From NCBI RefSeq assembly GCF_018977255.1, contig NW_024704743.1, positions 5,892,001 through 5,956,000 on the forward strand: 64,000 nt of DNA, written 5' to 3'. Origin of the DNA: Callorhinchus milii (lineage: Eukaryota). Below are positions 41,901 through 44,908 of the stretch, in pieces; positions within the stretch are counted from its first letter, which is position 1, and each line of letters begins with the position of its first letter. A program made the position numbers and the translations under genes. The notes beneath the pieces were generated by a model. The model was given only the letters and a program-made list of their open reading frames with translations. It ran no database searches and was not told where the DNA came from.

Positions 41901-44900
41901 ATCTGCCCCCGAGCTGGTGGTTGTAGGAGGGCGGAGTGGGTAGGGGTAGTAAAGTGACAGAAGGCACTTGTCGAAGAGGAGGTAAGCAACAAATTGCATT
42001 TCTCAACATGAGACTCAACAAATTCCACCTGGTTTTAGCAGAACCTGCAGGTAGATATCAGGGAGTTGGCCTCAACACTCATTTCCATATTGTGTGAAAT
42101 GCACTTCAATGTAGACGGACATCAGACTGAGTTATGGATTCATATGACTCACATATGACTAATGTGTAACAAATGCAGATTCATCTCAGTGATATTGTTG
42201 GTGGGGATGAGCAAGATAGGAATAGAGAAGTCCTGAAGTGCTGAGTTTTCTTTTCATTAATAAACTGACAGAAAAGTGATTTTTGAAAATATGCCCATTT
42301 TTATTTTGTGGTGCTAAAATAATGCCTTATTGGCATTTGTTCTGTTTCAAAGTCACACAATTTTCACATACAAGTAAAATCTACCAACAACAAGATTACA
42401 TTTGTATAGCGCCTTTCACGTCGGGAGGATGTCCCAAGGCGCTGTACAGAGTACAGCATTTCAGACCCAAGCTGGGGTTGGGGGCGTAAGGGAGGGGAGG
42501 GGAAGTGGGGTGGCCGATGGCATGGTCGAAAAGGAGGGTCTTGAGGCAGGACTTGAAGGAGGCTAAGGAGGGGAGAGGCGGAGTGACTGGGGGATGGAAT
42601 TCCAGAGATTGGGGGCAGAGTGGCTAAAGGCTCTCCCGCCAATGGTGGGGCGGGGGACATGGAGCAGGCCGGAGCCGGCTGAGCGGAGGGTATGGACGAG
42701 TTAGTAGGGGGTTAGGAGGTCGCAGGTAGGGTGGGGCGAGGCCATGGAGGGCTTTGTATGTGAGGACCAGGATCCTGAACTGGATCTTCTGAAGGATAGG
42801 GAGCCAATGGAGTTGGGCGAGAGTGGAGGAGATGGGGTCACGGAATTTGGTGCAGGAGAGGACACGGGCTGCAGAGTTCTGGATTATCTGTAGCCTGTGG
42901 AGGGAGGAGTTGGGAAGGCTGACAAGCAGAGCGTTTGCATAGTCGAGCCTGGAGGTGATGAAGGCATGAACAAGAGTTTCAGCGGCCTGAGGGGTGAGGT
43001 AGTGGCAGAGTCGGGCGATGTTACGGAGGTGAGGGAAGGCAGAGCGGGTCATGGCTTGAATGTGGGGGAGAAAAGACAGTTGAGGGTCGAACAAGACACC
43101 TCGGTTCCTGACTGGCTGGTGAGTTGTAGTGTGCAACCATGGAGGTTGATGTTACCAGAGCCTGAGGTGCTGAGGCACTGGCTCGAGCCAATCAAGAGGG
43201 CCTCAGTCTTATTCACATTCAACTGTAGGAAATTTGCCCTCATCCAGGACTTGATGTCCGACAGGCAGTCTGTCAGGAAAGCAATGGACCTGGAGTTGAG
43301 GGTGGAGGCAGAAAGATAGAGTTACAAACTACCAGCAGCAGTTTGTAATCCGAGTTTAAAATGCCTAACAGGAATTCTGTTGTTGACTGCAAGTGAATCA
43401 ATCTTGTATCGTATTTACTTTAAATAAATTTTCCGCAGTTGCAAACTATTAATTTTCAGATTTCAAACTCCGAGATAACCAAGCTCACAGATACAGATGC
43501 CTCTTAGGAACATAGGAACAGGAGTAGGCTATCCAGCCCCTCGAACCTGTTCCGCCATTCTATGGGATCATGGCTGATCTGTACCTCAACTCCAATTACC
43601 CGCCTTTGCCCCATATTCCTTGATACCCTTACCTAACAATTATCTATCCACCTGTCTTCCAGCATCCACAGCCTTTTGGGTGGAAGAGTTCCAGATTTCC
43701 ACTACCCTTTGGGTGAAAAATTGCCTCCTAATTTCACTCCTAAATGGCCTAACTCTAATTTTAAATCTATTTCCTCAGATGGGATTCCCCCACCAAAGGA
43801 AATAGTTTATCCTTATCTCCTCTATCCAATCCCTTTATTATTTAAAAAAAACTAAATTAGATCACCATTCAATCTTCTGAACTTAAGGGAATACCGACCA
43901 GGTTTATGCAACCTGTCCTCATAACTTAACCATTTAAACCCTGTTATCATTCTGGTGAATCTGTGCTGCACCCCTTCCAGAGCCAATATAACTTCCTGAG
44001 GGGCAATGATGCAGGTTAACCATCTAAAATTATATAGCTTGCAATTGAAAGCACTGCCTGGCAAGCTTCTTGCTGCTTGTCCAGGTAGGACCACCTTACC
44101 GATTAGGAATTTGGCTTGCAGGGTTGCAGTAGACTACACATTTACACTTATACAGTGTAAATTCATGTTTATTCAACCTTATTCATGTTGGGGGCAATGT
44201 CCAACAGCACTGGCCAATTTAGCTTATTCAGCCCTGGCTGAGACCACCAAACTCAGCACAGATGTGAATCAGCACACTTCCAGTTCATAACAGGCAGTTG
44301 GGGAATGTAAGAAAGGTCTCCTTGGAGTTTAATTGGCTCCAAGATGATATGTTTGGCAACAAAATGTTGGAATTGAGTCAACCCTCTGTGGCGGTCTGGT
44401 TCCTGAGTCAGGCAGGTTTACAGTACCCCAGAACATTCCTGATGACAGATCAGTGAGTCCGGCTCAGTAGGACAAGGCGAGGCAGACTGGTCACTCGAGG
44501 CAATAGCTAAGAAGGAAACAAATCTTCAAGACATTCTTTAGTTTACATGAAAGACACAGATACAAGGAGTCGATCAATCCCAATCGCTGTACAACAACTT
44601 GCACTTATATAGCACCCTCCACGCAGGATAGCGTATCAGAGCGCTGTATAGAATAACCAACAAAGTTACATAAAATAATTTACTTTACCTATTAACTTTT
44701 GAGATGTAAATCTCCATAGATCCATGGAGGACTTTGTCAGGTTACTTTCACTGTAACCCAACTTTGTATTACTATGATATTGTCGCCAATCAAACAAACT
44801 ACACTCAGGGCCATAAGGAGCCGTGGATTCTTTTCCTTGTCCTTGAGAAAGTGCCACACCAGCCGTTCCCCAAAACACCCAAATTTTCACCAGGTACCGT

Positions 44901-44908
44901 GGAAGCAT
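20804..44908 (-). CDS. SelO-like (YdiU/UPF0061 family) protein adenylyltransferase pseudokinase, Cys-type paralogue, 19 coding exons, 1752 nt, 583 aa
   Basis: All 18 introns GT-AG and phase-consistent, with no internal stop. Motifs: [95 protein letters not shown]. Confidence 0.95.
21033..21112 (-). CDS. SelO-like exon 18
   Basis: [27 protein letters not shown]. Confidence 0.95.
21538..21584 (-). CDS. SelO-like exon 17
   Basis: [16 protein letters not shown]. Confidence 0.9.
22003..22955. mobile_element. Cluster of L2 3' fragments in both orientations
   Basis: Two minus-strand (CAA)n tails at 22003 and 22401, one plus-strand tail at about 22953. Confidence 0.85.
23429..23508 (-). CDS. SelO-like exon 16
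   Basis: [26 protein letters not shown]. Confidence 0.92.
24079..24397 (-). mobile_element. tRNA-derived SINE nested in a Deu-type SINE (about 23890-24570)
   Basis: Family match; flanks AACTCCCTTCTC / CTTTTCAAATAGTGCCATGGGATCTTT rejoin as a Deu domain. Confidence 0.9.
25480..25572 (-). CDS. SelO-like exon 15
   Basis: [31 protein letters not shown]. Confidence 0.94.
26082..26163 (-). CDS. SelO-like exon 14
   Basis: [28 protein letters not shown]. Confidence 0.93.
26960..27340 (+). mobile_element. L2 3' fragment
   Basis: [26 protein letters not shown]; (GTT)n tail. Confidence 0.88.
28649..28693 (-). CDS. SelO-like exon 13
   Basis: ttccag|G...AA|gtatgt; [15 protein letters not shown]; phase 2>2. 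Confidence 0.88.
30054..30183 (-). CDS. SelO-like exon 12 (activation loop)
   Basis: [43 protein letters not shown]. Confidence 0.93.
31152..31235 (-). CDS. SelO-like exon 11 (catalytic loop and DYG motif)
   Basis: [28 protein letters not shown]. Confidence 0.96.
32213..32285 (-). CDS. SelO-like exon 10
   Basis: [24 protein letters not shown]. Confidence 0.94.
32397..32466 (-). CDS. SelO-like exon 9
   Basis: [24 protein letters not shown]. Confidence 0.92.
34449..34536 (-). CDS. SelO-like exon 8
   Basis: [29 protein letters not shown]. Confidence 0.94.
34652..34719 (-). CDS. SelO-like exon 7
   Basis: [23 protein letters not shown]. Confidence 0.93.
35517..35615 (-). CDS. SelO-like exon 6
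   Basis: [33 protein letters not shown]. Confidence 0.95.
36282..36338 (-). CDS. SelO-like exon 5 (ATP-binding Lys)
   Basis: [19 protein letters not shown]. Confidence 0.95.
36532..36884 (+). mobile_element. tRNA-derived SINE
   Basis: Family match. Confidence 0.9.
36959..37023 (-). CDS. SelO-like exon 4 (Gly-rich loop)
   Basis: [21 protein letters not shown]. Confidence 0.95.
37919..38047 (-). CDS. SelO-like exon 3
   Basis: [43 protein letters not shown]. Confidence 0.95.
38270..38872 (+). mobile_element. L2-clade LINE 3' fragment
   Basis: [31 protein letters not shown]. Confidence 0.88.
39203..40243. mobile_element. Old non-autonomous hAT/Charlie-like DNA transposon
   Basis: Ends CAAGGATGGCCAA and (rc) CAGTGTTGTCCAA; subterminal CCACATGTGG and TGTGGCTA motifs; 8-bp flanks CTCCATAG / CTCTACAG. 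Confidence 0.6.
39725..40075 (-). mobile_element. tRNA-derived SINE nested in a hAT-like element
   Basis: Family match. Confidence 0.9.
41485..41603 (-). CDS. SelO-like exon 2
   Basis: [40 protein letters not shown]. Confidence 0.92.
42386..43325 (-). mobile_element. L2-clade LINE, 5'-truncated
   Basis: [35 protein letters not shown]; 3' tail. Confidence 0.95.
43506..44005 (-). mobile_element. CR1-clade LINE 3' fragment
   Basis: [21 protein letters not shown]; same 3' tail as the 54270 copy; other tails near 6758, 19340-19520, 26420-26790. Confidence 0.9.
44689..44908 (-). CDS. SelO-like exon 1
   Basis: First in-frame ATG (A at -3); [23 protein letters not shown]...[12 protein letters not shown]; donor G|gtaaag, phase 1. 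Confidence 0.75.

Follow-up and report, generated by a model that had tools for sequence, protein, structure and literature searches.

The 64,000-nucleotide window analyzed here (Callorhinchus milii contig NW_024704743.1, positions 5,892,001 to 5,956,000 of the forward strand) carries on its minus strand a gene of the selenoprotein O (SelO) family. It is composed of 19 exons, all with GT-AG junctions, in which an intact frame of 583 codons runs from an ATG at 44908 to a stop codon at 20804. Its sequence relationships make the gene SELO2, a SelO paralogue of long standing in the Holozoa, and its product probably enters the secretory pathway in some form. Positions are numbered from the first nucleotide of the window, and the coordinates of all features are collected in Table 1.

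Gene Structure and Start Codon

An exon query matched the 583-residue database protein P0001, labelled Callorhinchus milii “Selenoprotein O”, which aligns to the window exon by exon and differs from the product of the window gene at two positions, both conservative. The N-terminal peptide for which a secretory role had been proposed in a preliminary description of this DNA exists as described, residues 1-23 being encoded by 44908-44840 and the ATG itself by 44908-44906. The start codon, which had been inferred there, can now be placed with more assurance. The first in-frame stop upstream of the ATG is a TAG at 45100-45098, no ATG occurs from there to 44908, the ATG has an A at position -3, and M1 aligns with a Met of several sharks. 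Exon 1 was found within longer contig records in three of the four runs examined, from two studies. The contig of run X1 spans 44689-45300, that of run X2 spans 44689-45205 and is spliced to exons 2 and 3, and that of run X4, from the second study, spans 44689-44990 and is spliced to exons 2, 3, 6, and 8. The runs behind these contigs are only presumed to be RNA, none being recorded as such; it is the exon-exon joins that mark the records as transcripts. The X1 and X2 contigs read through the in-frame TAG, so those transcripts have no upstream coding exon, and the placement of M1 at the first in-frame ATG of the transcript is supported. An upstream exon supplying a mitochondrial presequence, which the preliminary description had named as a possible refutation, was not seen in the spliced contigs, compared over the region up to 45640; the contigs do not give the true 5' end. 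It should be noted that the 5' untranslated part of exon 1 contains five short upstream open reading frames (ORFs), every one terminating ahead of the ATG, through which translation might be dampened or regulated should the long transcripts predominate.

Identity of the Window Gene

The SelO domain PF02696 covers residues 94-550 of the predicted protein with a score of 405.8 bits against a cut-off of 22.8 (E = 3e-121) and is the only Pfam domain found in it, while a search of the ESM Atlas returned SelO clusters only. Two SelO loci are present in the Callorhinchus milii genome, the window gene and a locus on contig C5. The latter, which has an Arg-bearing amphipathic N-terminal segment and a C-terminal end U-S-S, where U is selenocysteine (Sec), is canonical SELENOO; the tail of the window gene has Cys in place of Sec (C-S-S). 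In a tree of 44 chosen sequences, 20 members of the window clade, from Capsaspora to cat, were split from the canonical group with an SH-aLRT support of 99, and a tree of 148 sequences gave the same separation. The clade comprises vertebrate “SelO-like” proteins together with those of amphioxus, echinoderms, molluscs, a brachiopod, cnidarians, a sponge, insects, and Capsaspora, and the window protein is 65-70% identical to the “SelO-like” proteins of horse, carnivores, and birds. A search with Rfam for selenocysteine insertion sequence (SECIS) elements gave no match 3' of the window gene nor of SELENOO on C5 and is therefore non-discriminating. The end of the C5 gene (L007:2065-2256, plus strand) reads L-V-T-U-S-S, in which Leu replaces the first Cys of the CxxU motif described for metazoan SELO (PMC3281104).

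The branch was named SELO2 by Dudkiewicz et al. in 2012, who presented it as metazoan-wide and non-selenoprotein with a C-terminal Cxx motif only, recorded it from chicken, dog, horse, and cattle, and reported it missing from primates and rodents (PMC3281104). Among the best 120 of 3125 matches, where the absence of a species is no proof of loss, SELO2 was found in Otolemur, Microcebus, Chinchilla, Dipodomys, and Marmota, which makes its loss less extensive than stated in 2012. In the human line the gene has apparently been lost, and its counterpart there is presumably the pseudogene SELENOOLP. An entry under that symbol occurs in a table of PMC12519442. A further complication is nomenclature: teleost SELENOO2 (PMC13134290) is also a SELENOO paralogue and similarly named, but it is a young clupeocephalan duplicate grouped with the selenoproteins and lies outside the ancient SELO2 clade; the collision of names may obscure SELO2 in searches.

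The N-Terminal Leader

The leader was assessed in a sample of 189 clade members (132 from vertebrates and 57 others), with 136 other SelO proteins as the comparison set for residue counts. Sequences with a Met start and 50-125 residues ahead of the core were retained, which 116 vertebrate and 45 other sequences passed; the 28 excluded were fragments, over-long models, and short-leader forms, five lepidopterans included. Removal of near-duplicates left 48 vertebrate and 33 non-vertebrate orthologues, and some of the non-vertebrate clade sequences are assembly products. In the chimaera protein the best 10-residue Kyte-Doolittle mean is 1.62, compared with 1.87 for the presequence of canonical SELENOO by the same measure. 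The first 30 residues contain one Arg and two Lys, and the hydrophobic moment, a crude measure, is 0.39 with one Arg, against 1.06 with three Arg in SELENOO on C5, in agreement with the earlier statement that the leader is neither Arg-rich nor amphipathic.

It can be observed in the orthologues that the signal is considerably clearer. A best 10-residue hydrophobicity of at least 2.0 is reached by 33 of the 48 vertebrate and 30 of the 33 non-vertebrate sequences, and at least 1.6 by 42/48 and 31/33; among other SelO representatives the higher value is attained in 10 of 128, or in 6 of the 22 with an N-terminal extension of at least 40 residues. Hydrophobicity is higher over the first 35 residues than over the 35 just before the core in 46/48 vertebrates and 32/33 others, and the charge of the n-region is zero or positive in 47/48 and 30/33, respectively. 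Such leaders are found in sharks, sturgeon, teleosts, amphibians, reptiles, birds, and mammals, and also in amphioxus, echinoderms, molluscs, cnidarians, sponge, and Capsaspora, so that the hydrophobic N-termini expected of orthologues in the preliminary description are present across the clade. A 19-residue window reaching 1.9 occurs in only 7 of 48 vertebrates and 5 of 33 others (1.07 in the window protein), which implies that the leader is usually too short or too weak for a membrane anchor. By the -3,-1 rule, cleavage of the chimaera protein would be placed after S21 (A-x-S), with a site after G23 (S-x-G) equally plausible. The leaders are unalignable beyond close relatives; signal peptides diverge past alignment between distant orthologues.

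Departures from the pattern occur at the edge of the sample. The lepidopteran SELO2 proteins (P0128, P0295, P0331, P0334, and P0340) have a short leader with 42-43 residues ahead of the core and no linker Cys, and Leu replaces the Cys of the catalytic loop that marks the clade; these proteins may have been retargeted. Outside the SELO2 clade, the eukaryote-like SelO proteins P0133 and P0139 have strong hydrophobic leaders too, P0139 with an additional Cys-rich segment of EGF-like look and no Pfam match, and a secretory SelO may therefore have arisen more than once.

Sequons and Cysteines of the Linker

Four N-glycosylation sequons are present in the chimaera protein, N56-L-T, N297-M-T, N336-F-S, and N362-A-S; the third had been missed when the other three were listed as secretory evidence. 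N336-F-S and N362-A-S were dropped as evidence of glycosylation, being family-wide motifs, the latter present in bacterial SelO as well. The linker between leader and core behaves differently. At least one N-x-S/T occurs in the linker of 40 of 48 vertebrates; over 500 shuffles the count averaged 17 and never exceeded 26. In the wider sample such a sequon is found in 84/90 tetrapods, 31/31 eutherians, 12/14 cartilaginous fishes, and 3/8 ray-finned fishes. Its middle residue is free to vary (at least 10 different residues) within a linker that is itself highly variable, and N56 of the chimaera lies within a few residues of the linker-sequon site of sharks. The vertebrate linker sequon, as read from these alignments, is the sole sequon evidence that counts for the secretory pathway, and to that extent the earlier argument from sequons can be retained.

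The mature linker contains a Cys in all 48 vertebrates and 29 of 33 others, compared with 4 of 20 other SelO proteins. Pairing of this residue with C92 was considered and dropped, since several lizards lacking C92 keep the linker Cys and most non-vertebrates are without C92. No KDEL-type signal is found at the C-terminus, as had been stated: the chimaera protein ends VSCSS-stop and 183 of the 189 clade members end S-C-S-S, the other six having apparently truncated or alternative ends.

Active Site and Predicted Chemistry

The structural model built from a diverse alignment of 148 sequences, which superseded one from a vertebrate-only alignment with a predicted local distance difference test (pLDDT) of 47.5, has a mean pLDDT of 91.7, with residues 1-48 below 50 and unstructured. 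Foldseek matched the model to SelO/YdiU structures, NAD complexes included, with E-values from 1e-41 to 1e-43 and template modeling (TM) scores by target of 0.92-0.95, 6EAC and 9L29 (E = 3e-43) among them; no Fam20 chain was among the nine structural matches with E ≤ 0.001. A sequence search of the PDB returned four sequences only, all bacterial SelO/YdiU, and identity to the solved bacterial structures is 37-39%.

The active-site residues listed for E. coli YdiU (bioRxiv 10.1101/692707) are complete in the chimaera protein, their equivalents being Y152, Q156, F157, R168, K188, R197, D200, G201, E211, R258, R265, N333, D335, N336, and D345. In the alignment, YdiU R87, K107, D119, G120, E130, and R170 correspond to R168, K188, D200, G201, E211, and R258, and R177, M243, N244, D246, N247, and D256 to R265, C332, N333, D335, N336, and D345, respectively. 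The mapped residues are retained in 98-100% of the 189 clade members: K188, R197, N333, D335, N336, and D345 in all, E211 in 187, R258 and R265 in 186, and the tail Cys in 186. Cys332 in the catalytic loop marks the clade, being found in 177/189 members and in 0/136 other SelO proteins. At the position of the regulatory C272 of E. coli, Pro (P361 in the chimaera) is present in 187/189. The Arg usually found at the E. coli R280 position gives way to L369 in the chimaera and is replaced in 15/189 clade members. Inactivation of the chimaera enzyme by L369 was considered and found unsupported, given this variation and the same local sequence in a sea star.

SelO binds ATP in an inverted pose and transfers the AMP (PMC12409994, PMC8097203). 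It is reported to hydrolyse NAD+ as well, yielding nicotinamide mononucleotide (NMN) together with AMP, which requires Mn2+ and the C-terminal Cys or Sec, a residue dispensable for AMPylation (PMC13391479, PMC13443136). With the site that is conserved here, both reactions would be expected of SELO2 in vitro. The tail Cys is near-invariant though its disulfide partner at C272 is Pro, which leans slightly toward NAD+ hydrolysis over AMPylation; the conservation points to a tail-dependent function other than the C272 disulfide, in a pattern that is common family-wide too. As the main role in vivo, hydrolysis of NAD+ or other dinucleotides is given a little under an even chance, protein AMPylation may be the principal activity with a chance of about two in five, and some other role would be unlikely. 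These reactions are not firmly rankable: lumenal ATP in the endoplasmic reticulum (ER) and Golgi would favor AMPylation of cargo, and release into neutral or alkaline fluid would favor NAD+ hydrolysis. The term “AMPylase” in the preliminary description accordingly names one of two chemistries reported for SelO, the other being equally likely.

Discussion

The observations above are most readily accommodated if SELO2 is a secreted SelO in which a signal peptide takes the place of the mitochondrial presequence of canonical SELENOO and adenylyl or NAD chemistry is retained, a reading we hold to be reasonably probable. The leader would direct the chain to the ER, with cleavage after about residue 21-23, and the flexible linker would become N-glycosylated, for which tetrapods give the best case. 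A soluble enzyme, lacking both a retention signal and a further membrane segment, would pass through the Golgi and then be released. Its kinase-fold domain, in which sequence and model show the full SelO site, would hold an adenine nucleotide in inverted orientation together with Mg2+ or Mn2+ and break the bond adjoining the alpha-phosphate. With ATP in the ER or Golgi lumen, AMP would be placed onto Ser, Thr, or Tyr of proteins in transit; NAD+, in the presence of Mn2+ and the tail Cys, would be converted to AMP and NMN. A separate canonical SELENOO copy in the same genome is available for the mitochondrial role.

Several points weigh against secretion of an active SELO2. When 35-mers of the chimaera protein are shuffled, 20% attain the value of 1.62 (p ~0.2), so that its core alone is within chance; its leader is among the weakest in the clade and has a Lys within the core, a caveat entered at the outset and confirmed here, and most shark leaders have a Glu inside theirs. 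The leader was assessed by a crude hydropathy window, its identity as a signal peptide is a prediction, and the orthologues are related by descent, which means that counts and p-values exaggerate independence. At least three Arg are present in the first 25 residues of 19/48 vertebrate leaders, mainly of mammals, which is presequence-like. Linker sequons of non-vertebrates are unenriched (19/33 against a shuffle mean of 14.6 and maximum of 23), and sequon density in the body, 1.3-1.4 per protein compared with 1.3 in other SelO, shows no enrichment. The metal-binding N336 and the conserved N362 lie inside N-x-S sequons in all 48 vertebrate and 33 other sequences; glycosylation of N336 in the ER would abolish the enzyme, and the site must stay unoccupied for activity. 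The NADase role of the tail rests on two commentaries and not on the primary paper. Pro at the C272 position, for its part, was rejected as a lumenal adaptation, as Pro is found there in 76/136 other SelO proteins. An n-h-c leader within the first 45 residues holds up at the level of the family and is marginal for the chimaera protein alone, the signal reaching significance only across the orthologues.

An uncleaved leader would act as a signal anchor and make SELO2 a type II membrane enzyme of the ER or Golgi, its catalytic domain lying in the lumen on a glycosylated stem and a short basic tail facing the cytosol. Golgi type II enzymes are usually built as a leader, a variable glycosylated linker, and then the enzyme, the uncharged run has a median of 17-19 residues, the n-regions of Capsaspora and eutherians are long and basic, and the core in Capsaspora is of about 20 residues. 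Only 12 of the 81 orthologues, however, have a strong 19-residue window, and many cores are of 10-12 residues, starting at residue 2-7 and with small residues at the end; this arrangement is considered unlikely, and SELO2 would be a lumenal enzyme all the same. Less likely again is that SELO2 is mitochondrial or dual-targeted, the hydrophobic stretch belonging to a presequence or to a signal for sorting to the inner membrane. Arg/Lys-rich extensions ahead of the core in sharks and eutherians, including the Arg-bearing leaders counted above, short lepidopteran leaders beginning M-K/R-R, the head-to-head position of a polyprenyl synthetase gene, and the statement that SELO is mitochondrial in all eukaryotes studied (PMC3281104) are all in its favor. 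Set against these are the single Arg and low moment of the window leader relative to its canonical paralogue, the absence of an upstream exon in the contigs, and the leaders of most non-vertebrates, fishes, amphibians, and birds, which have no Arg and are hydrophobic from the start; even the Arg-rich eutherians all retain the linker sequon.

Secretion without catalysis is a further alternative: with a glycan on the active-site Asn or an oxidised tail Cys, the protein would bind nucleotide or act as a scaffold, in the manner of Fam20A. N336 and N362 within sequons, an unpaired catalytic Cys that would face an oxidising lumen, and the replaced Arg at the E. coli R280 position, the chimaera included, are compatible with it. 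Pseudoenzymes usually lose some catalytic residues, though, and those tested are nearly invariant across animals and Capsaspora, while N-x-S sites with bulky or acidic neighbors are often unused; we regard loss of activity as improbable. A view restricted to the chimaera, that its leader is too weak or is bypassed by a start at M62 so that a cytosolic SelO domain results, is the least probable of all. The weak core, the five upstream ORFs in the long 5' leader, and the position of M62, the second Met, just ahead of the folded domain would allow it, but M1 has a favorable alignment and an A at -3, the frame from M1 is intact, and a Met at position 62 is found in only 15/132 vertebrate sequences.

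A secreted SELO2 can be compared with several known systems. With canonical SELENOO, yeast Fmp40, and bacterial YdiU (PF02696) it has in common the fold, the active site, and a C-x-S-S-type tail; it differs by a hydrophobic leader in place of an Arg-rich presequence, Cys in place of Sec in the tail, Pro at the regulatory C272 position, and Cys at the M243 position. In reviews to 2025-2026 the animal AMPylases number two, namely FICD of the ER and mitochondrial SelO (PMC12409994, PMC8097203, PMC12494813, PMC13459536). FICD/HYPE, an AMPylase of the ER lumen and the sole one of the secretory pathway named in the accessible text of the first three, has the unrelated Fic fold, whereas the fold of SELO2 is that of a kinase and a retention signal is lacking. 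The best functional model for the location of SELO2 is Fam20C/Fam20A, in which an atypical kinase fold lies behind a signal peptide, uses Mn2+, and acts on secretory cargo (PMC7948968), but Fam20C transfers the gamma-phosphate and SELO2 appears to carry the alpha-phosphate chemistry of SelO. The ecto-nucleotide pyrophosphatases ENPP1/3 convert NAD+ to NMN and AMP outside the cell. SELO2 would carry out the same net reaction if the NADase reading holds, with a fold and metal site unrelated to theirs.

In its accessible text, PMC3281104 gives no function or location for SELO2, and it mentions varied predicted locations, the secretory pathway among them, for some non-vertebrate SELO proteins; the clade-wide leader, the vertebrate linker sequon, and the Capsaspora member are added here. 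In the open literature searched, subscription journals lying outside its scope, no paper on a signal peptide, secretion, localisation, or activity of SELO2 was found. Hence the proposal of an undescribed system needs division: gene and clade are known by name, and what would be new is the compartment, with a known fold and chemistry. The leader may already be marked as a signal peptide by automatic annotation in databases. It is rather more probable than the contrary that animals and their unicellular relatives keep a second, active SelO for the secretory pathway, one retained from sponges to most mammals and lost in the human line; it would be the first AMPylase with a kinase fold to act on secreted proteins, a new class of ecto-NAD+ pyrophosphatase, or both. 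If true, SELO2 would be a third animal AMPylase, extending from Capsaspora to mammals, and would open AMPylation of secreted proteins as Fam20C did for phosphorylation; alternatively, it would provide a new route of extracellular NAD+ turnover to AMP and NMN. SELO2 is also a natural Sec-free and probably easily expressed animal SelO for studies of structure and mechanism. The apparent human loss would explain its neglect in work centered on human and mouse, limit its medical reach, and pose a question of gene loss.

Feature Coordinates and Neighborhood of the Gene

Table 1. Features of SELO2 and its surroundings in the window (aa, amino acids)
Feature	Position	Strand	Basis
Predicted signal peptide, residues 1-21	44846..44908	-	sequence and family hydrophobicity
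Exon 1, 5' untranslated part	44909..45300	-	spliced contigs from X1, X2, X4
Upstream ORFs	within 44938-45133	-	
Exon 1, coding part, aa 1-74: leader, variable linker	44689..44908	-	
C36 (exon 1)	44803-44801	-	
Sequon N56-L-T (exon 1)	44743-44735	-	
Second Met, M62 (exon 1)	44725-44723	-	
Exon 2, aa 74-113	41485..41603	-	contigs and refined boundaries
Exon 3, aa 114-156 (Y152, Q156)	37919..38047	-	contigs and refined boundaries
Exon 4, aa 157-178 (Gly-rich loop, R168)	36959..37023	-	contigs and refined boundaries
Exon 5, aa 178-197 (K188 = E. coli K107)	36282..36338	-	
Exon 6, aa 197-230 (D200, G201, E211)	35517..35615	-	contigs and residue mapping
Exon 7, aa 230-253	34652..34719	-	contigs and refined boundaries
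Exon 8, aa 253-282 (R258, R265 = E. coli R170, R177)	34449..34536	-	
Exon 9, aa 282-305 (sequon N297-M-T)	32397..32466	-	
Exon 10, aa 306-330	32213..32285	-	
Exon 11, aa 330-358, catalytic loop (C332, N333, D335, N336, D345)	31152..31235	-	
Exon 12, aa 358-401 (P361, N362-A-S family motif, L369)	30054..30183	-	
Exon 13	28649..28693	-	
Exon 14	26082..26163	-	
Exon 15	25480..25572	-	
Exon 16	23429..23508	-	
Exon 17	21538..21584	-	
Exon 18	21033..21112	-	
Exon 19, coding part, aa 544-583 and stop (C581-S-S at 20815-20807)	20804..20926	-	
Polyprenyl synthetase gene	46539 to at least 60651	+	three exons match Pfam PF00348
GA-rich tandem repeat	45660-46300		
Proline-rich terminal exon	5908-6591	+	
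Retroelement-like intron fragments (examples)	42624-43321, 47696-48247, 54365-55306		

The polyprenyl synthetase gene, which we take to be PDSS1, lies head-to-head with SELO2 at 1.6 kb from the SELO2 ATG, with a GC-rich region between, an arrangement that suggests a shared bidirectional promoter. The human SELENOOLP pseudogene presumably adjoins PDSS1 as well. Between the two start codons is an imperfect GA-rich tandem repeat of about 640 bp that is purine/pyrimidine-asymmetric. On the other side, a gene convergent with SELO2 ends in a proline-rich exon without a Pfam match, which appears to resemble the end of APBB1IP/RIAM. Introns contain fragments of reverse-transcriptase-like reading frames and tRNA-like pieces of short interspersed elements, by appearance ordinary retroelement debris.

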